Virus record (IMG/VR): IMGVR_UViG_2788500352_000001
Direction: 5' to 3' (one strand)
DNA length: 20,000 nt
Origin: an uncultured virus (IMG/VR IMGVR_UViG_2788500352_000001)
Lineage: Duplodnaviria > Heunggongvirae > Uroviricota > Caudoviricetes
The translations under genes and the position numbers were made by a program. Of the stretch, positions 2,162 through 20,000 are shown one piece after another (the first letter of the stretch is position 1; each line of letters begins with the position of its first letter). The notes under the pieces were generated by a model. The model worked only from the letters and a program-made list of their open reading frames with translations. It made no database searches and had not been told where the DNA came from.

Positions 2162-3076
2162 ATGACAGCAGTACAGATCTCTCACGAACAATGGCTCAAA
2201 GCCCGACAGACCGGAATCGGCGGTAGCGATGTCGCCCCGATTCTTGGTATTTCCAAATGGACAACGCCGCTGGACGTATACAACGAGAAGGTAGCCGACA
2301 CCCCAACGGAAAAAGACAGCGATTCCATGGAATGGGGGCGCCGCCTGGAACCGGTTATCCGCCAGGCTTACGCGGATAAGACGGGACGCGTCGTGGCCGT
2401 GCCGGAAAAACAGTTCCGCAGCGACGCTCATCCCTTCATGATTGCCAATGTAGACGGTGTTTGCGAAGACCGTCTGTTGGAAATCAAGACCGCACGAACC
2501 GGCGCAGACTGGGGAGAAGAAGGCACGAACGAAATCCCAGACTATTACCTGACGCAGGTCATGCACTACATGATCGTCACAGGATACCGGCTTTGCGACG
2601 TGGCAGTGCTCATCGGCGCTTCCGACTTTCGCATTTACACAGTCGAGTACGACGACGAACTTGCTCAGATGTTGATCGAAGCCGAAGCAAAGTTCTGGAA
2701 GATGGTCGAGAACCGGACGCCCCCGGCTCCTCGTTCGCTTGCAGAAACGAAGGCCGCCTTCCCCTCCTCCGTTCCTTCGAGCATTGAGGCCGACAACAAG
2801 ATAGCCGAGACCATGACCGAACTCGCCAAGGTACGAAACGAAATCAAACAGCTGAAGGACACGGACGACAAATTGACTGCTGTCGTTCAGGCCTTCATGG
2901 GCGAAAGCGAAAAGCTGACTTTCGGAGGCTCAACCCTTGCCACCTGGAAAAGCAGCAAACCAGTAGCCCGACTTGATTCGGCTGCGCTCAAAAAAGCCAT
3001 GCCGGACATCTACGACCAATACACGAAACAAAGCGCGCCGACCCGCCGCTTCATCGTAAAAATTACTGAGGAGTAA
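2162..3076 (+). CDS. YqaJ-like viral recombinase / lambda-exonuclease family nuclease
   Basis: WLKARQTGIGGSD, MEWGRRLEP, ANVDG, LEIKT and YYLTQVMHYM motifs. Confidence 0.92.
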   Translation: MTAVQISHEQWLKARQTGIGGSDVAPILGISKWTTPLDVYNEKVADTPTEKDSDSMEWGRRLEPVIRQAYADKTGRVVAVPEKQFRSDAHPFMIANVDGVCEDRLLEIKTARTGADWGEEGTNEIPDYYLTQVMHYMIVTGYRLCDVAVLIGASDFRIYTVEYDDELAQMLIEAEAKFWKMVENRTPPAPRSLAETKAAFPSSVPSSIEADNKIAETMTELAKVRNEIKQLKDTDDKLTAVVQAFMGESEKLTFGGSTLATWKSSKPVARLDSAALKKAMPDIYDQYTKQSAPTRRFIVKITEE

Positions 3077-7262: not shown

Positions 7263-7753
7263 TTTGCACTCCCTCGTTTGACAGCATTCATCACCGTGCA
7301 AAGCAATTGAAGCTCGCTTTCAATTACGGATTGAGGCATAGGATAAAGCCACTCATTTTGGGAAAATTGCTCTGTCACATCGCCCTCTGCAAAATAATCA
7401 CTAAAGCCGATATTGTTTAGCTTTTTTATTCTCCACCCTTTGCAATCAATTTCATTTAAACTTGCTAATGATTTTGTTTGCGGTTGCCCTTTTACACTCG
7501 CGCCTTTTGCGTAGCTAATAATCGACCAGATTTTATTTTCATCATGAACGGGGCCGACAAAAAGAAAAGCGTTTAAATTTTTCAAAAACGTACCGGGGCA
7601 AATTTCACCACGCATCTCCTTTTCAACTAACGAAGAACCTTTTTTCGGAACGGTCATTTTGAACCCGCCGACGACAATTTCTTCCGCCGAAAAAGAAGGC
7701 ACAGACATAGCAATACAAGCCACTCCCGCCAAACAGGCAATAACCCTTTTCAT
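7259..7753 (-). CDS. Secreted/periplasmic accessory protein, surface-adhesin-E-like
   Basis: Signal peptide MKRVIACLAGVACIAMSVPSFS-A; EIDCK...W..P..S......LC pattern; start overlaps the integrase stop. Confidence 0.6.
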   Translation of the reverse strand: MKRVIACLAGVACIAMSVPSFSAEEIVVGGFKMTVPKKGSSLVEKEMRGEICPGTFLKNLNAFLFVGPVHDENKIWSIISYAKGASVKGQPQTKSLASLNEIDCKGWRIKKLNNIGFSDYFAEGDVTEQFSQNEWLYPMPQSVIESELQLLCTVMNAVKRGSAK

Positions 7754-8997
7754 TTGTCCACCTTGCTAAAACAAAAATCCGCCCACGCGGTCATCAATTC
7801 ACGCCGGCGCAGGAATAACGTCTGCCGCTCATACGCACCGTTGTAGCCGTCGTTCAGTTTGTGGTGCAGACAAAGATGCGCCACCCGCACGTCAAACCGC
7901 TTATCGTTTCCCAAACTGTCGTCCTGACTCCAGGTCATAAACGTGGCCCGAGCGATTCCGTGCTGAGTCGGACGTACCGTCTTCCCGCGCTTCAGAGTCT
8001 CGGCCTTGTCCGTCCAATCGCCAGGCGTCAATTTGACAAGCCGCCCGAGCATCGTATCCGTCATCACGTTACCGTAACGATTCGGGAAGATCAGCCCTTC
8101 ATGCGGTCGATCAATGCTTTTCAGAAACTCAATCACCTTCGGGGCCAGCGGCACAATCAATGCGCCGTTGCTGGAGACCTTCAGTTGTTCGGGCGGGACT
8201 GTCCAAATCTTCTCTTCCCAGTCTATCTGATCCCAACGGGCTTCCCGCGCCGTCTGCGAACGCGTCGCCGTCAGAATGGAAAACTCAAAGCACTGTCGGC
8301 TACTGATCTGCTTTTCGGCCATAGAGGCAGCGAAGAAGTCCGGCAACTCGCTTACCGCCAACGCCCCGCGGTTTTGTTTGACGTGTCGATTGTTCGGCAA
8401 AAGAAACTGCAACGCCCCATGACGATCCGCCGGATTGTCCCTGTCGGTGTAGCCCTTCGCCTTCGCCCAGTCGAAGACCTTTTTGGCGAAACCGAGGCAC
8501 CTATCCACAATGTCCGGTTTATCCCAAATAGCCGCCGCAATCTCGGCCACGTCCGCAGGCTTGATCTCGTCAATAAGCTTGTCACCGATTCTCGGCCACA
8601 CGTGACAACGCATCCGGCTTTCGAAAACACGATGAGACTTTGAAAGCTCCTCCCAGTTGCCTACGTCGATATTCCACTGCATGTACTCGTCGCAGACTTT
8701 TCGGAAAGTTTTCTTTGCCACGGACACGGGCTTTTTCTTTTTCGAGGCTTCGATCTCTTTCACAAAATCTTCAGCACCAAGTCCCATCAGCCGGGCAGTC
8801 ATAGCCCGCGCATTCGCCAAAGCGATACTTGCAGCACTGCCCAGACCTACGTCATACCTCTTGCCATTTACCTGACGACGCAGCACCCAAGCCCGTGAGC
8901 CACCTTTAATCACGAGGTACAAACCTTTGGTCAACTCGTCCCGATATACGCCGTCGCCAAGATTTCCCAAGGTTCTTTGTGAGAGTTTGGCTTTCAT
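7750..8997 (-). CDS. int: Tyrosine integrase, P4-like with arm-binding domain (integrase 1)
   Basis: GLYLVIKGGSRAWVLR arm domain; catalytic TATR, HGIAR, LHH, AYER. Confidence 0.93.
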   Translation of the reverse strand: MKAKLSQRTLGNLGDGVYRDELTKGLYLVIKGGSRAWVLRRQVNGKRYDVGLGSAASIALANARAMTARLMGLGAEDFVKEIEASKKKKPVSVAKKTFRKVCDEYMQWNIDVGNWEELSKSHRVFESRMRCHVWPRIGDKLIDEIKPADVAEIAAAIWDKPDIVDRCLGFAKKVFDWAKAKGYTDRDNPADRHGALQFLLPNNRHVKQNRGALAVSELPDFFAASMAEKQISSRQCFEFSILTATRSQTAREARWDQIDWEEKIWTVPPEQLKVSSNGALIVPLAPKVIEFLKSIDRPHEGLIFPNRYGNVMTDTMLGRLVKLTPGDWTDKAETLKRGKTVRPTQHGIARATFMTWSQDDSLGNDKRFDVRVAHLCLHHKLNDGYNGAYERQTLFLRRRELMTAWADFCFSKVDK

Positions 8998-9215: not shown

Positions 9216-9371
9216 TAATTCGAATTTCAGATATTCTCAGATAATCTCCCTCAGTCTCCATTGTTCACCTAATACGATGAATTTAAATGGAAACACTGCC
9301 TACCGTCAGTCTCTGTTGTTCTCTGTCGTTCTATATCAAACTCCCTCCAGCTCGCGAATGATTTCACCCAA

Positions 9372-9439
9372 CTATGCTCCCAATGGGTATGATTTCTTCG
9401 GAATTTTTCATTTTTTCTTCGGAACTTTTGGGAGCATAG
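9372..9439. repeat. Inverted and direct repeats upstream of integrase 2
   Basis: CTATGCTCCCAA (9372-9383) / TTGGGAGCATAG (9428-9439) enclosing two TTTCTTCGGAA copies. Confidence 0.65.
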
Positions 9440-9462
9440 CCTCCAACCCGCAGGAGAGCGGC

Positions 9463-10794
9463 ATGAGAGTAGCTGAACGCCTCACAGCGATACGACTGAA
9501 GACCCTTGAAAAGGACACTGCCTGCGGCGTTGTGCCGGGGCTTTACGTGACTGTCCGGAAGCTCGCCGACGGATCGTTTGCCAAGTATTTTGTTCTCAAA
9601 GATCGAAAACAAAAACGCTCCTACACCATCGGAAAATTTCCGGACATCTCACTCTCAGAAGCATTCACCAAGGCAGCAGAATGGCGAGACCTCATCCTCA
9701 AGGGCGATGACCCTTCCAAACAACTCTTAGAGGCCTCCTCTCCCCAAAAACTGACGTATGAGAATCTCATGTTTCAATGGGTCGAATTCAACAATAAACG
9801 CGGCCGGTGGAAAGATGACAAGAAACCTCGACTCGGCGTGTGGCAAGGATATTTCAGAAACCACATTCCAGACTCGCTGCGCCAGTGTCCGGCCGCTGAA
9901 TTAACGCCCGAGATGTTTGCTGACGCGCTGGCGGAAAAATGGCGGACCATGACCAACACCCCGGAAAAGATTCTTGCTGACACCAGGAATGCCATTGACT
10001 GGGCAATCCGACAAGAAATCATTCCGCCAATGATCAACCCGGCGCGCATTCACGGCGGAAAACTTGGAGACCTACTGCCGTTGAACAGACCGGAAACCGG
10101 CCACGAACCGGCTCTCCCCGTCCAAAAGATGCCGGCATTCTTCAAAATGCTCATGGAATACACCCTTTCGAGCCCTGCCGCCAGATGCTTGGCCTTTGCC
10201 ATCCTGACGGCAGCCAGAAACTCTACCGCTCGAGAGGCCACTTGGAGTGAAATCCAAAAGGACGATGACGGCAACTGGATCCACCTGATTCCGCGTTCAC
10301 GCATGAAGGTCAAGGCCGAAGGCTTGCCGTTTGACCGAAAGACCCCTCTGAGTTCCGTTGCGGTCAGGCTGCTGGAAACCATGCCGAGAGTCAAATATGA
10401 AGGACAGGATTACCTCTTTCCCAGTATCTTTCATCGTAGCCTCAAGCCGATGTCTCCGGAAGCCTTCTCGCGCCTCTTGAAAAGAATGCACGACCGCCAG
10501 CGCAAAATTGACGGTATCGGCTGGGTTGATCCGGAACAAATCCACGGAGCAACGCAGACACCCCGCATTGTGACGCTGCATGGCTGCGCCAGAGCAAGCT
10601 TCAATACCTGGGCCAAGGACGGGAAACGATTTGGACATCCCTTCTTTCCAAAGGATGTCCGGGAGAGCTGCCTCGACCACAGAAATGAGTCTTACCAGTG
10701 TGCCTATGACCGCGACCAAGCCACTGGAGAAATGCGCGATGTCTTTGAGGCCTGGGGACAATTCCTGACACAGGAAATGGATGACTTCAACTAA
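9463..10794 (+). CDS. int: Tyrosine integrase, P4-like (integrase 2)
   Basis: AGGAG RBS before ATG 9463; arm domain (VPGLYVTV..IGKFPDISLSEA); catalytic TAAR, HGCAR, LDH, AYDR. Confidence 0.92.
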   Translation: MRVAERLTAIRLKTLEKDTACGVVPGLYVTVRKLADGSFAKYFVLKDRKQKRSYTIGKFPDISLSEAFTKAAEWRDLILKGDDPSKQLLEASSPQKLTYENLMFQWVEFNNKRGRWKDDKKPRLGVWQGYFRNHIPDSLRQCPAAELTPEMFADALAEKWRTMTNTPEKILADTRNAIDWAIRQEIIPPMINPARIHGGKLGDLLPLNRPETGHEPALPVQKMPAFFKMLMEYTLSSPAARCLAFAILTAARNSTAREATWSEIQKDDDGNWIHLIPRSRMKVKAEGLPFDRKTPLSSVAVRLLETMPRVKYEGQDYLFPSIFHRSLKPMSPEAFSRLLKRMHDRQRKIDGIGWVDPEQIHGATQTPRIVTLHGCARASFNTWAKDGKRFGHPFFPKDVRESCLDHRNESYQCAYDRDQATGEMRDVFEAWGQFLTQEMDDFN

Positions 10795-10827: not shown

Positions 10828-11277
10828 TCATGGACGATGAAGTATTTCCTTTACTGCTGATCGATCTGATGATAACCGGATGACCAATCGGCTGCCCTCT
10901 TCAGGAGATTCCGCACTCTCAACAAGAAGGCGTCTACATTCTGCGATTCGTCGCTCACAAAGCTTTCCGGAATCGCAGGTGCCGGCGGGCACTCGACCAC
11001 CGCCGGCGGCCGCGCCGCGCAGGCGCTCAACATCCCGCCGCATACCAGCAAGCTGAGAGTCAAGCGCATCGATTTCAGCCTGCTTCTTGTCGACCGCGTC
11101 GGCGAGCTTCTTCGCATTGTCTGTCTCCCTTTTCGTGAGTTCGGCCTGGTACTTCTGAGCCGCGGCCGCGTAGCCGGCTTTAAGGCGCGCGATGTCTGCA
11201 GTGCGCAGGGCGTCCGCAAAGGCGTATCCGGCACTGAAGACGACCACGGCCGCAGCGAGGTAGAGCCACTTGGCCAT
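10828..11277 (-). CDS. Rz-like inner-membrane spanin
   Basis: N-terminal TM (MAKWLYLAAAVVVFSAGYAF), coiled coil, Cys-containing tail; follows the endolysin. Confidence 0.8.
   Translation of the reverse strand: MAKWLYLAAAVVVFSAGYAFADALRTADIARLKAGYAAAAQKYQAELTKRETDNAKKLADAVDKKQAEIDALDSQLAGMRRDVERLRGAAAGGGRVPAGTCDSGKLCERRIAECRRLLVESAESPEEGSRLVIRLSSDRSAVKEILHRP
10851..11069 (-). CDS. Rz1-like outer-membrane lipoprotein spanin, embedded in Rz
   Basis: MRLTLSLLVCGGMLSA-C lipobox, Pro-rich (CPPAPAIP), in an alternative frame inside Rz. Confidence 0.8.
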   Translation of the reverse strand: MRLTLSLLVCGGMLSACAARPPAVVECPPAPAIPESFVSDESQNVDAFLLRVRNLLKRAADWSSGYHQIDQQ

Positions 11278-11279
11278 CT

Positions 11280-11534
11280 TTAAAGCAGCCAACCGCCGGC
11301 AAAGAAGCAGATCATGCCGAAGCCGACACAGACAGGCGCCCAGAAGAGACGGCACTTGCGGCGCATCTCGGTATCGAGCTTGGCCTTCTCGGCCTTGAGT
11401 TTTTCGTAGGCGTCCAGCGTGAGATCTTCGACCTTCACGCCGATTTTCTTAAGCCATTCCTGAAAGTCTTCGCTGTTCATCACATACTCCTTGAAAAATT
11501 TAAAAACGTATTTGATGATTTCTTCTTTGGTCAT
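11280..11534 (-). CDS. Lysis-region protein with C-terminal TM (copy A)
   Basis: 84 aa, hydrophobic C-terminus, between endolysin and spanin. Confidence 0.7.
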   Translation of the reverse strand: MTKEEIIKYVFKFFKEYVMNSEDFQEWLKKIGVKVEDLTLDAYEKLKAEKAKLDTEMRRKCRLFWAPVCVGFGMICFFAGGWLL

Positions 11535-11902
11535 TTTTTGCAGTTGTCCCAGCGCGCCTTGAATCCTCTGGCATCAACATGCACAAAGCTGTCATACAGC
11601 CCCACTCCGCCGTCAGAATTGAGCTCCAAACAGAGATCCTGAAGTGCCGGGAGGTCTTCCTGATGCTCCGGACGAATGTCAGCCGCGAGGCCCCTGACGT
11701 GGTAAGAGTTCTCCACGCCGCCCACGGCGCGATTGTGCTCAGGCGAGCGATAAGCGCTGTTGACAATGATCGGGCGGCCCCATGCCGTACGGATTCGGTT
11801 CAATAAAAAGAGCAGTTCTGATCTGACCTGCTGCTCCCCGAACGGAGAGCGCTGGCCGTCCTTGCTGGCGAGCTCTTTTGTGTCAAAGTATCCGATTTGC
11901 AT
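11531..11902 (-). CDS. Endolysin, peptidase M15A family (copy A)
   Basis: SAYRSPEHN, SYH..GLAADI, FVHVD motifs; start MQIGY matches copy B MKIGY. Confidence 0.9.
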   Translation of the reverse strand: MQIGYFDTKELASKDGQRSPFGEQQVRSELLFLLNRIRTAWGRPIIVNSAYRSPEHNRAVGGVENSYHVRGLAADIRPEHQEDLPALQDLCLELNSDGGVGLYDSFVHVDARGFKARWDNCKK

Positions 11903-12398
11903 TTTTGCCTTCTTTCGGCTTGTCGCCGATCTCTTCAACTGATTCATCCAACCGGGCGTTGATCTGTTTGAGTGCCTTGCGAATAATCGGAGGGATGCAT
12001 CCGCCGAGATCCATGCGATCGAGGTTCTCGATGATGCTCATGAGTTCTGTGAAGCCGTAGGCCGCGATGACAATGCCTTGGAACACAGCGAGATAGCCCA
12101 GCGTGTAGGCAAACTGCACGTCAAGGCCGTGCGCAAAGCCCACGACAACAAACATCAGGCCCTTTTTCAAAAGCCCATGAGACACGATCCGGCTCTCAAA
12201 GTCGCGTTTGACGAACGCGGCCGCCATGCCCGTCACAAGGTCTGCTCCGACAAAGATCGCGAGCCATATGATGAGCGGCTTGGTATCGAGACCGAAGAAA
12301 AACGAAAGAGCGCCGGTGAGGGCGCCCACGGCCGCGGCAAGTATTTTCTCTGTGCCAACAGGCAAAAAGTCCGGCGTCATGTGCATCCTCTCCGGCAT
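11883..12398 (-). CDS. Phage holin (holin_4_1-like), copy A
   Basis: TM segments; DLVTGM, GLLKK, ELMSIIENL...IP motifs. Confidence 0.88.
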   Translation of the reverse strand: MPERMHMTPDFLPVGTEKILAAAVGALTGALSFFFGLDTKPLIIWLAIFVGADLVTGMAAAFVKRDFESRIVSHGLLKKGLMFVVVGFAHGLDVQFAYTLGYLAVFQGIVIAAYGFTELMSIIENLDRMDLGGCIPPIIRKALKQINARLDESVEEIGDKPKEGKNANRIL

Positions 12399-12401
12399 AA
12401 A

Positions 12402-12641
12402 TCACTCCCGCAGATCCGGCGGGAATTGCCGCCGGCCCTTTTCGCTCTTCCACGACTCTTCGCAGTGGTTCTTGTCGAACCACAGCAGGGCATCGATCAG
12501 CCGCTTTGGCCAGAGCCGCTGGCCCGAGCAGTATTCCCGCCAGGCCCGGCTCGACAAACTCTCATCCGGCCACCCGCCGATCAGGGCGTTGGCGAGTTGA
12601 TCCAACGCGATCAGCACGTTCTTGATGTATGCGTACATCAC
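12402..12641 (-). CDS. Phage hypothetical protein (copy A)
   Basis: DQLANALIGGWPDESLSSRAWR..IDALLWF..NHC pattern. Confidence 0.75.
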   Translation of the reverse strand: MMYAYIKNVLIALDQLANALIGGWPDESLSSRAWREYCSGQRLWPKRLIDALLWFDKNHCEESWKSEKGRRQFPPDLRE

Positions 12642-13033
12642 GCGGCCGTAAAGTCGACAGGGACAAACTTGATCTTGATTTTCGCGAGGCCTTCTTTCGT
12701 CTTCGCGTCATCAATCGCGTCTCGCGTCTTCCACTTGTAGTCGTAAGCGGCGAGGCCTGCAGAGATAATTTCCTGATTCAAGACCTGGAGTTGCTCAAGG
12801 TTGAGCGGGTGTTTTACGTTGTTAGCGTCCATAAATTCGACGCCAGCTGCGGTGTAGGTGTTCTGCGCCTCTAAAGCCTCGACAAGGGCGCCGACGTCAG
12901 TTTTCGCACGGTCGTCGCTGTCAGCCTCAAAGCCGAGAGAAGACTTTAAGGTGGCGGCTTCACCGCGCCAGGCAGTAAAGGCACCGTCCAGCTCACGCTT
13001 CTTTTCTTCTTTCAGCTCATCGAGCGTCTTTTC
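12638..13033 (-). CDS. 3' part of the DUF4376-like protein (copy A, cut at the N)
   Basis: Near-identical to 14610-15005. Confidence 0.75.
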   Translation of the reverse strand, partial: EKTLDELKEEKKRELDGAFTAWRGEAATLKSSLGFEADSDDRAKTDVGALVEALEAQNTYTAAGVEFMDANNVKHPLNLEQLQVLNQEIISAGLAAYDYKWKTRDAIDDAKTKEGLAKIKIKFVPVDFTAA

Positions 13034-13034
13034 N

Positions 13035-13242
13035 CGATTTCAGCCTGCTTCTTGTCGACCGCGTCGGCGAGCTTCTTCGCATTGTCTGTCTCCCTTTTCG
13101 TGAGTTCGGCCTGGTACTTCTGAGCCGCGGCCGCGTAGCCGGCTTTAAGGCGCGCGATGTCTGCAGTGCGCAGGGCGTCCGCAAAGGCGTATCCGGCACT
13201 GAAGACGACCACGGCCGCAGCGAGGTAGAGCCACTTGGCCAT
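13035..13242 (-). CDS. 5' part of the Rz-like spanin (copy B, cut at the N)
   Basis: Matches 11070-11277. Confidence 0.75.
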
Positions 13243-13244
13243 CT

Positions 13245-13499
13245 TTAAAGCAGCCAACCGCCGGCAAAGAAGCAGATCATGCCGAAGCCGACACAGACAG
13301 GCGCCCAGAAGAGACGGCACTTGCGGCGCATCTCGGTATCGAGCTTGGCCTTCTCGGCCTTGAGTTTTTCGTAGGCGTCCAGCGTGAGATCTTCGACCTT
13401 CACGCCGATTTTCTTAAGCCATTCCTGAAAGTCTTCGCTGTTCATCACATACTCCTTGAAAAATTTAAAAACGTATTTGATGATTTCTTCTTTGGTCAT
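13245..13499 (-). CDS. Lysis-region TM protein (copy B)
   Basis: Identical protein to 11280-11534. Confidence 0.7.
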   Translation of the reverse strand: MTKEEIIKYVFKFFKEYVMNSEDFQEWLKKIGVKVEDLTLDAYEKLKAEKAKLDTEMRRKCRLFWAPVCVGFGMICFFAGGWLL

Positions 13500-13867
13500 T
13501 TTTTGCAGTTGTCCCAGCGCGCCTTGAATCCTCTGGCATCAACATGCACAAAGCTGTCATACAGCCCCACTCCGCCGTCAGAATTGAGCTCCAAACAAAG
13601 ATCCTGCAGCTCAGGAAGATCCTCCAGGTTCTCCGGCCTGATGTCTGCTGCAAGCCCCTGGACGTGGTAAGAGTTCTCCACGCCGCCCACAGCGCGGTTG
13701 TGCTCTGGCGAGCGATAAGCACTGTTGACAATGATCTGCCGCCCCCATGCCGTCCGGATCCGGTTCAATAAAAAGAGCAGCTCTGATCTGACCTGCTGCT
13801 CCCCGAACGGCGAGTGCTGGCCGTCCTTGCTGGCGAGCTCCTTTGTGTCAAAGTATCCGATTTTCAT
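13496..13867 (-). CDS. Endolysin, peptidase M15A family (copy B)
   Basis: Same motifs; several substitutions relative to copy A. Confidence 0.9.
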   Translation of the reverse strand: MKIGYFDTKELASKDGQHSPFGEQQVRSELLFLLNRIRTAWGRQIIVNSAYRSPEHNRAVGGVENSYHVQGLAADIRPENLEDLPELQDLCLELNSDGGVGLYDSFVHVDARGFKARWDNCKK

Positions 13868-14370
13868 TTTTGTAACGGTCCTTCTTTCGGCTTGTCGCCG
13901 ATCTTTTCCACTGATTCATCTAGCCGGGCGTTGATCTGTTTTAGTGCCTTGCGGATGATCGGAGGGATGCATCCGCCGAGATCCATGCGATCGAGGTTCT
14001 CGATGATGCTCATGAGTTCTGTGAAGCCGTAGGCCGCGATGACAATGCCTTGGAACACAGCGAGATAGCCCAGCGTGTAGGCAAACTGCACGTCAAGGCC
14101 GTGCGCAAAGCCCACGACAACAAACATCAGGCCCTTTTTCAAAAGCCCATGAGACACGATCCGGCTCTCAAAGTCGCGTTTGACGAACGCGGCCGCCATG
14201 CCCGTCACAAGGTCTGCTCCGACAAAGATCGCGAGCCATATGATGAGCGGCTTGGTATCGAGACCGAAGAAAAATGAAAGAGCGCCGGTGAGGGCGCCCA
14301 CGGCCGCGGCAAGTATTTTCTCTGTGCCAACAGGCAAAAAGTCAGGCGCCATGTGCATCCTCTCCGGCAT
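13864..14370 (-). CDS. Phage holin (copy B)
   Basis: As copy A, with a different C-terminus (EGPLQK). Confidence 0.88.
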   Translation of the reverse strand: MPERMHMAPDFLPVGTEKILAAAVGALTGALSFFFGLDTKPLIIWLAIFVGADLVTGMAAAFVKRDFESRIVSHGLLKKGLMFVVVGFAHGLDVQFAYTLGYLAVFQGIVIAAYGFTELMSIIENLDRMDLGGCIPPIIRKALKQINARLDESVEKIGDKPKEGPLQK

Positions 14371-14373
14371 AAA

Positions 14374-14613
14374 TCACTCCCGCAGATCCGGCGGGAATTG
14401 CCGCCGGCCCTTTTCGCTCTTCCACGACTCTTCGCAGTGGTTCTTGTCGAACCACAGCAGGGCATCGATCAGCCGCTTTGGCCAGAGCCGCTGGCCCGAG
14501 CAGTATTCCCGCCAGGCCCGGCTCGACAAACTCTCATCCGGCCACCCGCCGATCAGGGCGTTGGCGAGTTGATCAAACGCGATCAGCACGTTCTTGATGT
14601 ATGCGTACATCAC
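14374..14613 (-). CDS. Phage hypothetical protein (copy B)
   Basis: As 12402-12641. Confidence 0.75.
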   Translation of the reverse strand: MMYAYIKNVLIAFDQLANALIGGWPDESLSSRAWREYCSGQRLWPKRLIDALLWFDKNHCEESWKSEKGRRQFPPDLRE

Positions 14614-15374
14614 GCGGCCGTAAAGTCGACAGGGACAAACTTGATCTTGATTTTCGCGAGGTCTTCTTTCGTCTTCGCGTCATCAATCTCGTCTCGCGTC
14701 TTCCACTTGTAGTCGTAAGCGGCGAGGCCTGCAGTGATAATTTCCTGATTCAAGACCTGAAGTTGCTCAAGGTTGAGCGGGTGTTTTACGTTGTTGGCGT
14801 CCATAAATTCGACGCCAGCTGCGGTGTAGGCGTTCTGCGCCTCTAAAGCCTCGACAAGGGCGCCGACGTCAGTTTTCGCACGGTCGTCGCTGTCAGCCTC
14901 AAAGCCGAGAGAAGACTTTAAGGTGGCGGCTTCACCGCGCCAGGCAGTAAAGGCACCGTCCAGCTCACGCTTCTTTTCTTCTTTCAGCTCATCGAGCGTC
15001 TTTTCCGGAATCTTTTCAACAATCCACTCCAGATCAGGCCCACGTGCGATTCGATGCGTTGTGCTGCCCTCTGTGAGCTTTTGGAACAACTGGCGAAGCT
15101 CATTGCATCTTTGCGTCTGGGACTGATGAGAAACCGCCCCCATCGCAACACAATCTTCTGCCGTCTTTGGTTTCGGTTCCTTAATCCATGAGGACTTATC
15201 GTCCGATAGGCGGTAAAACGACTGGGCCGCAGCCGGATCCTCTGCGGGCGCATCAATCTGCGCCACATCATCCGGAAGCAGCAACTCTCCGTCCGGCATT
15301 TCCATCACCATCTTGAAATCGCAGAAATAGCCGTCCTCATCAACGCAGGGTAAACGAACTAATTTTGATGCCAT
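14610..15374 (-). CDS. DUF4376-like tail-fibre assembly/associated protein
   Basis: KTLDELKEEKKREL, FMDANN...L, YDYKW..R..ID.AKT.E.L..I motifs; GGAG RBS; downstream of the tail-fibre locus. Confidence 0.75.
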   Translation of the reverse strand: MASKLVRLPCVDEDGYFCDFKMVMEMPDGELLLPDDVAQIDAPAEDPAAAQSFYRLSDDKSSWIKEPKPKTAEDCVAMGAVSHQSQTQRCNELRQLFQKLTEGSTTHRIARGPDLEWIVEKIPEKTLDELKEEKKRELDGAFTAWRGEAATLKSSLGFEADSDDRAKTDVGALVEALEAQNAYTAAGVEFMDANNVKHPLNLEQLQVLNQEIITAGLAAYDYKWKTRDEIDDAKTKEDLAKIKIKFVPVDFTAA

Positions 15375-16554
15375 GTTAAAAACTCCAATTACCTCAAAAA
15401 AGTTAGCCGCACTTAAGCCGCGCCAAAAGCGCTACTCAATCGCGGTTGGTTACGGGCTGTCTTTAAAAGTTCAGCCATCAGGCACTAAGTCCTGGGTACT
15501 GCGAATCTGCACACTCGGCCGTGTAGCCGACTTGGCCATCGGCCACTTCCCTGAAATGTCCCTGGCCGAAGCAAAGCAAATCGCCCGCAGAAAGCGGAAA
15601 GAGCTGGGCCAGGAGCCGCCTCTTGGCTACACCCTCAAAGATGCTTTCCACTTATGGTGCAATTTAAAAAAGGGGAGAATCACGAGCTACGCTGACGAAC
15701 GACGAAGGCTCGAGAAGTACGTCATTGGTCCTCTGGGGAATCGCCAAATTGACGAAATCACCGCGCCGCTCATGATCCAAATCGTTCGGCCAATTGAAAC
15801 CGCCGGACACAGAGCAACACTCAAGCGCGTCATCATGCGGGTGCGCGAAATCCTAGACTTAGCGGTATGTGCCGGCTACATTCAGCACAATCCAATTGAT
15901 CGCCTAAACCGCATCTTCGCCCCGCCAGTCACTCGCCCCATGCCGGCCCTTCCATGGCAGGAGCTCGAATCAATCATGGCTGTCATAGCCGCCGCCCCGA
16001 CCAGGCTACAAATCTTGTTTCTTTGGTCGCTATGCTCAATGCTGCGGCCAGGCGAAACTGCAAAGCTCAGGAAAGACTGGATTAAAGACGAAACGCTGAC
16101 CATTCCCGGAGACCAGATGAAAAAGCGCCGGCCTCACAGGGTTCCACTAACAAATTTCATGCTCCGTCTACTGGCGGAGGAACACAAACTCTCACCTCAC
16201 CCGAAAAATGCCTTTGTCTTTTCAGGCATGCGGCCAAACGAGCACATGTCAAGCCAGAAGCTTGCCAAGTACCTTCATCAGACAACCCTTTCAGGAAAAC
16301 TCGTTGCTCACGGACTGCGGTCAATCGCCAGGAGCTGGCTGGCAGACCACGCCATCCCGTTTGAAGTTGCGGAATCATGCCTCTCTCACGTGTCCGGGAG
16401 TCAAGTTTCACGCGCTTACCAAAGGTCTGATTATTTGGAGGCAAGACGCCCCGTCATGGACGCGTGGTGCTCTTATGTATACGGCTGTGCCCTGAGAGCC
16501 GGTCTTCTTCCACACATTATCAGCGCCAATGAGGAGGCCAAAGAAAAGTCTTAG
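15373..16554 (+). CDS. Tyrosine recombinase, putative shufflon invertase
   Basis: P4-integrase-like with arm domain (GLSLKVQPSGTKSWVLR); catalytic LRPGE, HGLR, LSH, AYQR; ends 70 bp from the first CCGGACAT site. Confidence 0.88.
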   Translation: MLKTPITSKKLAALKPRQKRYSIAVGYGLSLKVQPSGTKSWVLRICTLGRVADLAIGHFPEMSLAEAKQIARRKRKELGQEPPLGYTLKDAFHLWCNLKKGRITSYADERRRLEKYVIGPLGNRQIDEITAPLMIQIVRPIETAGHRATLKRVIMRVREILDLAVCAGYIQHNPIDRLNRIFAPPVTRPMPALPWQELESIMAVIAAAPTRLQILFLWSLCSMLRPGETAKLRKDWIKDETLTIPGDQMKKRRPHRVPLTNFMLRLLAEEHKLSPHPKNAFVFSGMRPNEHMSSQKLAKYLHQTTLSGKLVAHGLRSIARSWLADHAIPFEVAESCLSHVSGSQVSRAYQRSDYLEARRPVMDAWCSYVYGCALRAGLLPHIISANEEAKEKS

Positions 16555-16624
16555 CCCAAACCACAGGGGGCAGCCACCAGTATTCAGCCCCCTATCTTCT
16601 GATGATTTATAGACAGTTTGGGCA

Positions 16625-16861
16625 CCGGACATAACAGGATCGATCATCCCAAAAAACACAACAGACGACACCGTAGATGGCTCATTTAACGGCGCTTTCT
16701 ATAAATTATCTAGCGGCGGCAAGGGAGCATGGTCTGTCGATGATTCAGAAAATGCTCAGTATGGGCTCGGCTTCCGAGCTGGGTATTCAGACTCGACTTA
16801 CGGCCAGTCAAGCGGTGTGTCCGTCCCGGCATGCTATGCCTTGATAATCATTAGCGTGTAA
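16625..16861 (+). other. Silent cassette 1
   Basis: PDITGSIIPKNTTDDTVDGSFNGAFYK...YGQSSGVSVPACYALIIISV*; open frame, no start codon. Confidence 0.9.
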
Positions 16862-17073
16862 GCCGCCGGAACAGATACCCCGGAAGTGCGGCCGTAGACA
16901 CTGCTCGAATCGGATGCCGTAAAAACCAGTCGTCCGGGAACAGTCTCAGCCACGCTATCTAAGTGCGATGAATAGGCGTCTTTGGTAGCCTTTTCCACTG
17001 AGAAAACTCCTGTACTTTTGCGTGTAGGCACGTACTCTATGCCTCTGACCTCCGTATACCCGCTGATGTCCGG
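16834..17073 (-). other. Silent cassette 2
   Basis: PDISGYTEVRG...YGRTSGVSVPAAYTLMIIKA*. Confidence 0.9.
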
Positions 17074-17292
17074 CCGGACATCATTGGTGAATTTGACGTT
17101 GGGCACGCTGAATTACAATATACAAGCGGCGCTTTTTCTCTCATAGCCAAAGAGCAATCAAATTACGGTGTAGACAAATATCAACACCGAAAAATTGTTA
17201 AGTTTATGGCTTCTTCCGAAAACTCAATATATGGAAGATCTAACAATGTCAACGTCCCGTCAGCCTACGCCCTGATGATTATCAAAGTGTAA
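17074..17292 (+). other. Silent cassette 3
   Basis: PDIIGEFDVGHAELQYTSGAFSL...YGRSNNVNVPSAYALMIIKV*. Confidence 0.9.
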
Positions 17293-17492
17293 GAAGCGGG
17301 TACTTGCACCGTTGATGAGTTTCCGTAGATGCCATTCGACTTGGAAGCCGAAAAACCTAAAACAGTTGCTCTTATGGAGGAATCTTGGCAATGAGTATCA
17401 GCGTTCCCTTGGGATACTGCATAGAACGCCCCTTTGTGGTCAGTTGTCATTAAGGGATAGCCGCCGATTTGTACAGTGCCAGTTATGTCCGG
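17265..17492 (-). other. Silent cassette 4
   Basis: PDITGTVQIGGYPLMTTDHKGAFY...YGNSSTVQVPASYTLIIIRA*. Confidence 0.9.
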
Positions 17493-17725
17493 ACATAACG
17501 GGCACTGCTAATTATTTATCCGTTGGGTTAACTTTCGATGCTAAGCCTCATCCAACCGGGGCTTTCTATTGTCCCAATGTCTCTGCCAATGGGGGTGTTG
17601 CTGGGGATTCTCTTTGGCGAATGGATAGTTTTCAGTTCGCTGCCAGATGGTCCAGCTCGACATATGGAAACTCCTCAGGTGTTTCTGTTTCCGCTTGTTA
17701 TGCCTTGATAATAATTAAGACATAG
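17489..17725 (+). other. Silent cassette 5
   Basis: PDITGTANYLSV...YGNSSGVSVSACYALIIIKT*. Confidence 0.9.
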
Positions 17726-17946
17726 TAAGCTGGCACAGATACCGTACTGGCACGCCCGAAAATATAGTTACCTTGAGATGCCTCAATATCAATTTTGGCT
17801 CGGTAGTGGCTGCTACCTTTAGAGGCATATTGTGAATACGGATTATTCTCCGCTGCCACAGAATAGGAGCACACGCCACCAGCCCAAAAGATAACGCCAT
17901 TATTTTCTGTATTCGTATCGCAGAGCAATGTACCAGTTATCTGTCC
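17698..17946 (-). other. Silent cassette 6 (degenerate site)
   Basis: GQITGTLLCD...FGRASTVSVPAYYVLIIIKA*; begins GGACAGATAAC rather than CCGGACATAAC. Confidence 0.85.
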
Positions 17947-18168
17947 CCGGACATAACCGGAGAATTTCCGAATAATGACGCCGAGTATGACAAATATTAC
18001 GCAGGAGCTTTTTGGACAGGCACTCCATTTGAAGGAGGTTATTCCGATGACCCTCAATCAAAAGGAAAGACCGGCCGATTTAAAGCATCGTGGGCCAGTT
18101 CCATTTATGGATATAACTCAGACGTTTTGGTTGATGCGCTTTATGTCTTAATAATAATTAAAACGTAA
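17947..18168 (+). other. Silent cassette 7
   Basis: PDITGEFPNNDAEYDKYYAGAFWTG...YGYNSDVLVDALYVLIIIKT*. Confidence 0.9.
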
Positions 18169-18370
18169 ACGGCATCCACGGTTACTCCGGAGTAGATGCG
18201 GCCATAAGTCGCTACTGATCGTGAGGCTCTGAATGACCTCCATAACGAGTGGTATACCCCCGCCTGCATAATTTGACGAACCTTCACCGGAACTATCAGC
18301 AAAAGCCCCGGCTAACGCTCCTGTCTGATTAAGTCCAGATATAAGGCTTCCTGTTATACGTAATGTCCGG
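18141..18370 (-). pseudogene. Cassette 8, frameshifted
   Basis: 230 bp. The CCGGACATTAC site is out of frame with ITGSLISG..GAFADS; a second shift near C5 (18257-18261) leads to ..SFRASRS..YG..GVTVDAVYVLIIIKT*. Confidence 0.8.
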
Positions 18371-18600
18371 ACATCAGTGGAACTTGGGGCTCCGCTTTCG
18401 AAGCCGATAACAGCGGGTGGCAGTCCACAGGGGCCGTGTATTCAGCAAAAACTGGTTCATTGAGTATGGAGATTCCCGGCTTCTCTGAGACGAGAGAATT
18501 TATACGTAGATCTTTTCGTGCCTCTCGTTATAGCGGCTATTACGGAGCATCAGGAGTATCAGTTGATGCCACCTATGTCTTGATGATCATCAAAGCATAG
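18367..18600 (+). other. Silent cassette 9
   Basis: PDISGTWGSAFEADNSGWQSTGAVYS...YGASGVSVDATYVLMIIKA*. Confidence 0.9.
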
Positions 18601-18794
18601 AGAGCATCAACACTAACCCCGTTAGACCGACCGAAGTATCCACTGACCAGGCTTGCGGACAAGTGAATGCCAGGCGTTTTTCCTAAAACAGGCGAATTGA
18701 TGTGGCTGGCGGAATATGACGTTGACGTATACAACGCTCCGGAAGTTTTTTCTGTACCTCCGCTCACAAGGCTAATACTGCCAGTGATGTCCGG
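18573..18794 (-). other. Silent cassette 10
   Basis: PDITGSISLVSGG...FGRSNGVSVDALYALMIIKT*. Confidence 0.9.
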
Positions 18795-19021
18795 ACATAA
18801 GTGGTTATGCAACATCCGGCATTATTTGGAAAAGCGCCTGGAGGACCTACGGTGCCCTCTGGACAGAAGACTCGGGAAACAGTGACAAAAAGTCCGTAGC
18901 GCCCGGGCCGGATCCGATTGTTAACGTCCGGATGCGTGCCGGCGCGTATGACAGTACGTATGGAAGATCGTCATCTGTGTCTGTCGCCGCGGCTTATGTT
19001 CTGATGATAATCAAGGAATAG
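18791..19021 (+). other. Silent cassette 11
   Basis: PDISGYATSGIIWKSAWRTYGALWT...YGRSSSVSVAAAYVLMIIKE*. Confidence 0.9.
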
Positions 19022-19801
19022 GCCGCAGGAACGGAGACAGATGATGAATTTCCGTACACATTATTTGAATAATGGGCGGCAAAATTTAAAGCATAGTCAT
19101 CACCGTAGCGGCCCCATCCGCATGAAAAATCAACCTTTTTTCCACGATTAAAGCAACCGGAATATATAGCACCACTAGAAAAATGAAAGCCACCAGAATC
19201 ACCATTGAAGTTTGGTGAAAAAGAACCCGTGATGTCCGGTAACCCAGCACTTACGTAGCTACCGAGGTTTCCCGTGTTGGTTGTGCCCAACACATGCCTA
19301 CCATTGAAATTAGGCAAATTAAACGTGGTAGAGCCGTTGCCTGATCCATACCGGGTACCAATGGCCGCAAACAACTTGGCATAGGTCGTTCTGGAGACCG
19401 CTGCACCGTTACATAAAAGCCAACCGTCAGGGATCGTGCTGCCGGCAATCATTTTGTAATCACCGGGCTGAGCCCCTTCGCTCACTGTGATGTCAATCAC
19501 CTGATCGACATCACCGTTGTATTCGCCGACCTTTACGCCGTTCACATTGACAGTGAGCTTTTTCTGCTGAATGTCGACTGCGACCGCCTTGCTGCCGTCA
19601 TAATCCCCCAGCTTCGTGCCATTTCTCTTAATCGTCAGTGCATACGGACTCTTGAGGCTCGTCGGAATCTTCGGAAGCGTTACGTTATACGTAGCCTTAT
19701 TGCTCCCGTCATACGTCACCTTCGTCACACCGCCGATCTGCAAAGTAAGCGCCTGAGGATTTTTCAGCGACTTCGGAGTGCCGCTCAAATCCGAATAATT
19801 C
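18994..19801 (-). CDS. Tail fibre with tail-collar domain (5' end lost at N19802); currently fused to cassette 12 (18994-19239)
   Basis: Three LT....G....Y[DN]G repeats; collar motif PDGWLLCNGAAVSRTTYAKLFAAIGTRYGSGNGSTTFNLPN; then GLPDITG...YSLIIIRT*. The frame stays open (NYSDLSGTP) up to the N. Confidence 0.92.
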
Positions 19802-19802
19802 N

Positions 19803-20000
19803 TGGATCGACATCCGGATCGGTGGCCGTGTAGGTCATCACTGCCGGATTTGTGCTTTTCCCGGATACCGGTCGCAGGTTGAAGTCATAACCGCCCGCCT
19901 TTTGCTTGGTTTTCTGTTTCGGGTCCCGGTAGGACACCGTACAGGTGCGGTATGACTCGCTCTGAGCACTCTCAAATTCCCAAGAAATGACCTGCGATGT
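19803..20000 (-). CDS. Internal fragment of a probable baseplate hub / late control D-like protein
   Basis: Open frame TSQVISWEFESAQSESYRTCTVSYRDPKQK...TYTATDPDVDP; resembles gpD-like proteins; bounded by the N and the window edge. Confidence 0.5.

Follow-up and report, generated by a model that had tools for sequence, protein, structure and literature searches.

The window analysed here is a stretch of 20,000 nucleotides from an uncultured Caudoviricetes virus (IMG/VR record IMGVR_UViG_2788500352_000001), and it carries, at positions 16625-19239, a prophage shufflon that serves a tail-fibre gene. The alternative fibre tips of this element are encoded as convergent pairs of cassettes, and the two members of each pair overlap at their 3' ends by 28 bp in which both strands encode the same C-terminal peptide. 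Based on the analyses described below, we consider it probable, at roughly 0.7, that this overlap is a true dual-coding joint of a phage tail-fibre shufflon, without a separate job at the DNA level. Tyrosine-recombinase shufflons of phage tail fibres are already known; what appears to be new, judged by the searchable literature, is the sharing of dual-coding cassette ends and the spacer-free layout.

A first-pass annotation had reported six overlaps, each reading Y-x-L-[IM]-I-I-[KRS]-x-stop in both directions. All six were confirmed at the following coordinates, and the motif is present on both strands in six of six.

16834-16861, both strands: dual-coding overlap 1, 14/28 self-complementary
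17265-17292, both strands: dual-coding overlap 2, 18/28 self-complementary
17698-17725, both strands: dual-coding overlap 3, 20/28 self-complementary
18141-18168, both strands: dual-coding overlap 4, 22/28 self-complementary
18573-18600, both strands: dual-coding overlap 5, 24/28 self-complementary
18994-19021, both strands: dual-coding overlap 6, 16/28 self-complementary

Each stop codon lies across the Tyr codon of the partner, as had also been noted, with two bases in common. A degenerate pattern of the joint, YTAYNNNYTDATNATNATHARNNNRTAR, matches six times in the 20-kb window, compared with no match in each of 200 dinucleotide shuffles. The whole 2.35-Mb genome holds the pattern at 13 places, namely the six in the window, six on contig C2, and one on contig C20. 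The overlaps are real and far beyond chance.

With the bases of the overlap numbered 1-28, the plus-strand codons occupy bases 2-4, 5-7, and so on to 26-28, and the minus-strand codons run from 27-25 to 3-1. The motif is its own antisense: its reverse complement, one base out of register, encodes the same peptide followed by a stop. Four couplings between the partners follow from base complementarity. Three ATN codons (Ile or Met) face three ATN codons across the strands; the Leu codon, YTN, faces ARN, which makes the K/R/S position the shadow of the partner's Leu codon; the first two bases of the last-residue codon fix residue 2 of the partner (the pairs observed, last residue first, are A/A, T/V, V/T, E/S, and Q/C); and the Tyr codon, TAY, lies opposite TAR, the stop of the partner. 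Met occurs at position 4 exactly when the Ile-5 codon of the partner is ATC. The residue-2 codon ends in a pyrimidine in 29 of 30 distinct arms, compared with 56% for the same codon families in cassette bodies (p = 8e-7, only indicative since the arms are related), and a pyrimidine at this position keeps Lys or Arg on the opposite strand. The single non-pyrimidine arm gives the Ser variant of the window (IIISV). Altogether, 13 of the 28 overlap columns are invariant. More generally, the overlap is a natural case of a peptide motif that is its own antisense, in which residues of one protein are predictably tied to residues or the stop of the other, and this coupling explains the variation of the motif at its K/R/S, I/M, and A/T/V/E positions.

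The overlaps are embedded in an element in which every base lies within at least one cassette. The shufflon is 2615 bp long, with 0 non-coding bases and 183 bases that are doubly coded. Seven sites with the core CCGGACAT delimit six invertible segments in the window, and these segments are contiguous and bounded by short repeats in both orientations, as expected of a shufflon. The core corresponds to the P-D-I codons of the L-P-D-I-T-G junction at the end of the constant, minus-strand fibre gene, and the twelve cassettes open with P-D-I-[TSI]-G and continue the reading frame of the constant L-P-D-I junction. Three internal sites form a perfect palindrome, ATGTCCGGACAT, where the divergent cassettes share their first codons too. 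Each segment contains two convergent tip cassettes of 72-83 codons each, which are 31-46% identical to the expressed one and are built on a common framework (PDITG...GAF...F-x-A-S...YG-x-SS-V-x-V-x-A-x-Y-x-L-I-I-I-K-x). The sites, cassettes, and flanking genes are listed below; cassettes are named by segment and strand, with body types (T01 and so on) in parentheses, and the rearrangement joints given for each site are those mapped on assembled contigs, as discussed further on.

16625-16632, plus strand: leftmost crossover site CCGGACAT, single; joints 16624/16625 in runs X1 and X2
17066-17081, no single strand: two abutting opposed half-sites, ATGTCCGG and CCGGACAT; joints 17063-17074
17485-17496, no single strand: palindromic double site ATGTCCGGACAT, common to divergent cassettes 2- and 3+; joint 17489
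17943-17954, no single strand: site of cassette 4+, with the 3- half degenerate; joints 17947/17954
18363-18374, no single strand: palindromic double site ATGTCCGGACAT of cassettes 4- and 5+; joints 18366-18371
18787-18798, no single strand: palindromic double site ATGTCCGGACAT of cassettes 5- and 6+; joints 18791/18799
19232-19239, minus strand: site at the constant fibre gene end, encoding L-P-D-I; joints 19230/19239
16625-16861, plus strand: cassette 1+ (T10), 78 amino acids and stop
16834-17073, minus strand: cassette 1- (T05)
17074-17292, plus strand: cassette 2+ (T03)
17265-17492, minus strand: cassette 2- (T02)
17489-17725, plus strand: cassette 3+ (T06)
17698-17949, minus strand: cassette 3- (T11), frame open, site degenerate
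17947-18168, plus strand: cassette 4+ (T07)
18141-18370, minus strand: cassette 4- (T14, a broken T12), frameshifted and +1 out of frame with the site
18367-18600, plus strand: cassette 5+ (T08)
18573-18794, minus strand: cassette 5- (T09)
18791-19021, plus strand: cassette 6+ (T01)
18994-19239, minus strand: cassette 6- (T04), fused in frame to the constant gene
19240-19801, minus strand: constant tail-fibre part with Collar domain, interrupted by N at 19802
15373-16554, plus strand: tyrosine recombinase gene of P4-integrase type (Pfam Arm-DNA-bind_3, Phage_int_M, Phage_integrase)

In the present configuration, cassette 6- is the expressed one, and its fusion to the constant gene gives an open frame of 297 codons. 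The constant gene contains a Collar domain (PF07484; 79.4 bits compared with a Pfam cut-off of 24, E value 1.9e-22) and also matches PHROG tail and tail-collar families. The recombinase is recognised by Phage_integrase (E value 5.7e-17) and Arm-DNA-bind_3 (3.9e-13); its match to NCBIfam PRK09692 falls below the cut-off, and the models that it matches are generic or P4-type integrase models. A homologue of this recombinase (67-100% identity) adjoins the shufflon in 16 of 25 related loci, and from its adjacency the product of 15373-16554 is presumed to be the shufflon invertase.

Two of the twelve cassettes are unusable as they stand. Cassette 4- carries extra bases immediately after CCGGACAT, one in C20, L112, and L101 and seven in the window, L090, and L107 (C and L numbers denote contigs and related loci), which places it in the +1 frame in every relative; a further frameshift is present in the window, L092, and L102, and the cassette is open in C20, L090, L101, L107, and L112. 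If selected, 4- would yield a truncated fibre. Cassette 3- has a site that reads RGQITG, not PDITG, in all five loci that hold it. Both look like decaying partners.

The proposal that the last residues of two tips come from a single stretch of DNA is supported by natural contigs, in which both strands of the same overlap were found fused in frame to the constant gene. Such fusions were found for 11 cassette types, and both members are fused in four pairs (T01/T04, T08/T09, T16/T17, and T05/T13). Both strands of one 28-mer thus end real fibre genes, the two members of a pair being fused in different contigs. Judged by sequence, the overlap appears to be an antisense dual-coding gene overlap with both frames open, conserved, and used as fusions.

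To assess conservation, related loci were collected with a partner-agnostic pattern (V-x-V-x-A-x-Y...stop), which yielded 22 metagenome and 3 viral loci, and cassette ends were detected independently on each strand in 26 sequence sets. Of 64 pairs, 60 had the partner end at exactly 28 bp, and overlaps of other lengths were not seen; the remaining four pairs also overlap by 28 bp and failed only the peptide filter (an I-M-I variant and truncated partners). Including contig C20, there are 65 overlaps with 15 distinct 28-mers. With strict patterns, true loci made up 22 of 22 matches in the metagenome scan and 3 of 3 in the viral scan, and the joint can serve as a highly specific DNA marker in searching metagenomes for such switches. 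A looser form of the palindrome, in which TATG was fixed, was tried and rejected: 2 of its 47 viral loci were real, and the other 45 were AT-rich chance matches with a guanine-cytosine (GC) content of 0.19-0.41. The element is absent from 200 related genomes, where the only match outside the window's own genome is a chance one whose two frames both contain stops. When the region was compared with phage genomes by BLAST, the only matches were of 75-78% over about 90 nt to the collar region of unrelated fibres; a protein-seeded scan of genome contigs returned one unrelated collar protein only, and the corresponding viral scan one close relative in addition to collar-only matches.

A separate observation concerns a deletion in L114 (4018-4300), L103, L096, and L098 that joins a truncated T01, of which 27 codons are left, to a truncated T03. 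In the L114 lineage, the dead partner retains the 28-mer and about 18 more codons, since these are required by the living cassette.

A second, distant lineage extends the rule. A profile built from the window cassettes matched 1376 proteins at E values of at most 0.001. Among the best 150 of these, the L-I-I-I-K-x ending is found in 59 of 75 proteins of at most 160 amino acids, two of which end in -IRY and rather belong to the other class; it is found in only 6 of the 75 longer proteins, where -IKY (23) and -VWRRTA (13) are the commonest endings. We take the short proteins with this ending to be silent cassettes that were called as genes. In 14 of the short proteins, Gln replaces Tyr, and with the same geometry a Gln codon, CAR, requires the partner's stop to be TGA. 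The corresponding DNA pattern matched 20 viral loci, of which 15 are AT-rich chance matches and five (GC content 0.39-0.57) are real. All five show the predicted 28-bp joint with Gln CAR facing TGA, and one joint is mixed, with Tyr/TAA on one arm and Gln/TGA on the other. A partner-agnostic version of the pattern recovered the same five contigs, with TCA at positions 1-3 in 8 of 8 real ends. At L129 (3925-3952), one arm has Arg (CGG) in place of Gln; the partner's stop is now CGA and its frame reads through, and this locus is a natural example of residue-to-stop coupling. The crossover sites of the Gln/TGA lineage are long palindromes too, reading I-F-G-P-N-I-T-G both ways. Separately, L122 and L137 (3001-3028) have a fibre gene with the ending AAQVLMIIKA-stop, opposite which only some 23 codons of a partner frame survive; the gene looks like a fixed fibre descended from a shufflon cassette.

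Natural rearrangements show where the element recombines. The window, L092, and L102 contain the same six segments in different order and orientation and with different expressed cassettes, and the partners remain intact throughout. Ten joints were mapped on assembled contigs of four runs from four studies. Nine of them fall at CCGGACAT sites and none at an overlap, and the contigs bridge the overlaps intact. The site joints share 8-11 letters, except for one (19239 to 18367) that shares none. The tenth joint, 17091 with 18986, matches the deletion junction of the L114 lineage.

The question raised by the first-pass annotation, whether a cassette has different partners in relatives, has a divided answer: yes across diverged relatives, and no among near-identical, actively shuffled copies. 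Across loci, 7 of about 17 body types have more than one partner type. T01 is paired with T04 (8 loci), T06 (3, plus one truncated), T10 (2), and T23 (1); T05 with T10 (4), T13 (4), and T04 (1); and T03 with T02 (8) and T15 (3). A single 28-mer recurs without change in 15 pairs whose bodies differ. The breakpoint of one clear chimera, L096, falls within the conserved YGNSS codons, at a distance of 37-40 nt upstream of the overlap, as homologous recombination predicts. These patterns fit occasional homologous recombination in the conserved 3' framework including the overlap, and they demand no dedicated site, although they would also be compatible with one.

A simple model for the element would be the following. 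The tyrosine recombinase would invert DNA between oppositely oriented CCGGACAT sites, and the inverting unit would be a segment of about 430 bp with its two convergent cassettes. Successive inversions could bring any cassette with an intact site to the constant collar-domain fibre gene, providing twelve alternative tips. The joint would travel intact with its segment, locked at 28 bp because any insertion or deletion, or most substitutions, would damage both tips. Partners would be re-assorted only rarely, by ordinary recombination in the conserved 3' framework including the overlap, and the long RNA or DNA hairpin formed by the joint would be an unavoidable by-product of homologous frames meeting head to head. 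As to origin, the first pair may have arisen through a fold-back inverted duplication centred on the naturally palindromic L-M-I-I-K codons, an event that would have made the partner frame, the inverted site, and the stop (the Tyr complement with the preceding base) in one step. Pair 5, in which 24 of 28 positions are symmetric, is closest to this presumed fold-back state. A joint of this kind would limit the engineering and the evolution of receptor-binding tips of this family. Neither a recent inverted duplication nor gene conversion between arms was retained as an explanation, since the similarity of partner arms past the first 15 nt does not exceed that of non-partners.

In this model, the terminal residues are presumed to matter for tip structure. 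In comparisons with solved structures, a collar and tip profile aligned to the short tail fiber 9cuy_c in the PDB from the collar into the tip up to F-x-A-S (E value 5.7e-7) and to the long tail fiber 8kec over the collar (1.1e-7), and the match to T4 gp12 was weak (0.02-0.05). The last 24 profile positions, including the dual-coded tail, are unaligned to solved collar-type fibres. A monomer model of collar and tip reached a predicted local distance difference test (pLDDT) score of 46.7, and a tip-only model 68.1 with the last 20 residues lacking secondary structure; a Foldseek search against the PDB gave no match at E values of at most 0.001.

Several observations weigh against a purely coding interpretation of the joint. 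Structural importance of the terminal residues finds no support in the models obtained. The related loci are kin, so that the counts given above are not independent. Over the first 15 nt upstream of the overlap, partner arms are 0.605 identical compared with 0.557 for non-partners. Contigs used to map joints drop rare variants, and rare re-paired forms are invisible at this level. Between L100 and the window, and between L100 and L094, the partner switches within about 50 nt that include the overlap, and such switch points leave room for a role of the joint in re-pairing. Finally, each of the twelve 68-nt folds is a stem-loop with the overlap at its centre (-16.5 to -33.9 kcal/mol; z from -1.5 to -6.9, with z of at most -3 in 11 of 12), and pairing between actual partners is slightly above that of shuffled ones, with only 12 of 500 shuffles reaching the observed value. 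Even as a by-product, the hairpin may have a role at the mRNA 3' end.

A broader interpretation builds on the dual-coding joint and remains tentative, in our view rather doubtful: the joint could have evolved as a design principle common to an entire class of shufflons for collar-type fibre tips. Palindromic dual-coded joints would weld every cassette to its neighbours at both ends without a non-coding base, the crossover-site joint being P-[DN]-I-T-G and the 3' joint [YQ]-x-L-I-I-I-K-x-stop. The L-I-I-I-K-x ending, as opposed to the -IKY and -VWRRTA of fixed fibres, would have been shaped by the need to be self-antisense. The palindrome would also give birth to segments, with an L-M-I-I-K fold-back producing the partner, the inverted site, and a Tyr- or Gln-complement stop in one step.

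Alternatively, the stem-loop could have been selected for a function in RNA, such as protection of the 3' end, a pause or stop of transcription before the antisense partner is reached, or slowing of the ribosome at the stop codon. The first-pass annotation had raised an RNA hairpin, and the consistent folding described above, by which the same kind of hairpin would end the mRNA whichever cassette is expressed, speaks for it. Across 30 distinct pairs, 66.3% of hairpin cells are paired, compared with 34-40% in slid controls. Yet pairing reaches 64.7 +/- 0.8% even when the partners are shuffled, which indicates that the stem is a consequence of the head-to-head arrangement of two homologous frames; column composition accounts for the pairing almost fully, and covariation specific to partners is marginal at best. 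All of 500 shuffles give at least as many further pair types as were observed. Unconstrained positions in the 28-mer are no more complementary than chance: 3.6 of 8 free position pairs are complementary, compared with 4.03 for a null of arms from different overlaps (permutation p = 0.90). None of the nine terminator-like sites in 14500-20000 (5.4 +/- 2.6 expected) has its centre at one of the six overlaps, and the stems are not followed by a U tract. One terminator-like site on the plus strand (18975-18992) has a T-rich tail that runs into the start of overlap 6. On balance, an RNA function finds no support in these data, and we consider it unlikely.

A further alternative is that the quasi-palindrome is, as the first-pass annotation suggested, a second crossover point that re-pairs segment halves; it would be used at low frequency, in a site-specific or hairpin-mediated manner, and would multiply combinations. 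The variety of partners, the recurrence of one 28-mer in differing pairs, and the switches in L100 are in line with this suggestion. However, partners never change among near-identical shuffled copies, no mapped joint falls at an overlap, and the L096 breakpoint lies upstream of it. Nor does the overlap resemble a crossover site, with which it shares only 5-nt arms (TGATG/CATCA) around a spacer of 2 bp, not 6 bp. Re-pairing changes the neighbours of a cassette and leaves the set of makeable tips unchanged, and therefore adds no coding diversity. We consider a second crossover point very unlikely. Least probable, and likewise very unlikely in our view, is that the symmetric AT-rich core binds an accessory DNA-bending or regulatory protein, for example as an inversion enhancer present once per segment: one symmetric element does lie at the centre of every segment with its invariant columns, but the two reading frames account for every one of these, there is no surplus symmetry at unconstrained positions, and the distant lineage keeps the geometry and changes the outer bases, so that the protein-binding site put forward earlier is not supported.

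The dual-coding shufflon can be compared with known inversion systems, using the portions of the cited accounts that were available. Multi-inversion shufflons whose segments carry two opposed partial frames are classical (PMC5430464), and a survey lists tail-fibre and tail-collar targets of programmed inversion (PMC9881135). Like the R64/IncI shufflon (Rci, sfx sites, pilV), compared here by its description, the element consists of contiguous invertible segments, each with two opposed partial reading frames, and offers alternative C-termini for one constant gene next to a tyrosine recombinase and short conserved repeats (PMC5430464). In contrast to R64, where a pilus adhesin is the target, the element acts on a phage tail fibre; its recombinase combines an arm-type DNA-binding domain with matches to P4-type integrase models, and its internal sites are palindromes common to divergent cassettes. 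The available part of the R64 description contains no mention of 3' overlaps (PMC5430464).

The Rin shufflon of Bifidobacterium prophages likewise places a phage tyrosine recombinase beside variable receptor-binding C-terminal cassettes and a constant N-terminal gene (PMC6109161). According to the same partial account, Rin lacks an arm-type domain and uses an asymmetric 11-bp rix repeat, whereas Arm-DNA-bind_3 is present here; the rix repeat, TTCCCTAACCC, has 0 matches in the window with up to one mismatch allowed. Overlapping cassette ends do not figure in that portion of the Rin description (PMC6109161). BV01-like Phocaeicola phages also have a recombinase-flanked multi-cassette shufflon at the distal end of a fibre gene, with configurations that differ between samples (PMC13596623). 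Unlike the element described here, theirs has three cassettes giving six variants, a directional 10-bp motif, and differing stop positions, and a shared dual-coding tail is not mentioned in the sections available (PMC13596623). Inversion in the Gin, Cin, and Min systems of phages Mu, P1, and p15B likewise exchanges the C-terminal portion of the fibre and changes host range, and Min is multi-segment (PMC6109161, in the part available). In contrast to the present system, these use serine invertases. The Resolvase family (PF00239) is represented in this genome only on contig C21, not on the contig of the window, C17. Shared or overlapping cassette ends, or a spacer-free shufflon, were not found described in the searchable full texts, outside which lies subscription-only literature, including the original R64 papers.

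Further copies of the region are present in the genome and among the related loci. Contig C2 holds a 3.6-kb duplicate, 99.97% identical and in the same order, which most likely arose in assembly. The system occurs a second time, with only one invertible segment, at C20:569-4145 and in locus L112 (the same as L008/L048). The C20 segment is of pair-4 type and 95% identical to the corresponding pair of the window; the recombinase gene on C20 is interrupted or rearranged, with a second match to the recombinase 3' end about 1.3 kb downstream. At the fibre end of the window, the 197 bp beyond the N at 19802 recur with 99.5-100% identity at five other places in contigs C17 and C20, which indicates that the fibre shaft holds a repeated module and makes the assembly of 19802-20000 uncertain.

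Elsewhere in the window, a direct duplication of 1.84 kb (11070-12900 and 13035-14872, 96.8% identical) contains a lysis module with holin-like and spanin-like genes. An N at 13034 lies just before the second copy, and the duplication could be genuine or have arisen in scaffolding. Upstream of the lysis modules are two more integrase-like genes, at 7750-8997 on the minus strand and 9277-10794 on the plus strand, both with Arm-DNA-bind_3, Phage_int_M, and Phage_integrase. Together with an S24 repressor-like gene at 377-1048 and a YqaJ exonuclease gene at 2162-3076, these suggest prophage ends or two adjacent elements. Finally, a gene for a DUF4376 protein (14610-15374, minus strand) abuts the recombinase gene on the other strand and lies downstream of the fibre and shufflon in the direction of fibre transcription; at a guess, its product is in the position expected for a tail-fibre assembly factor.

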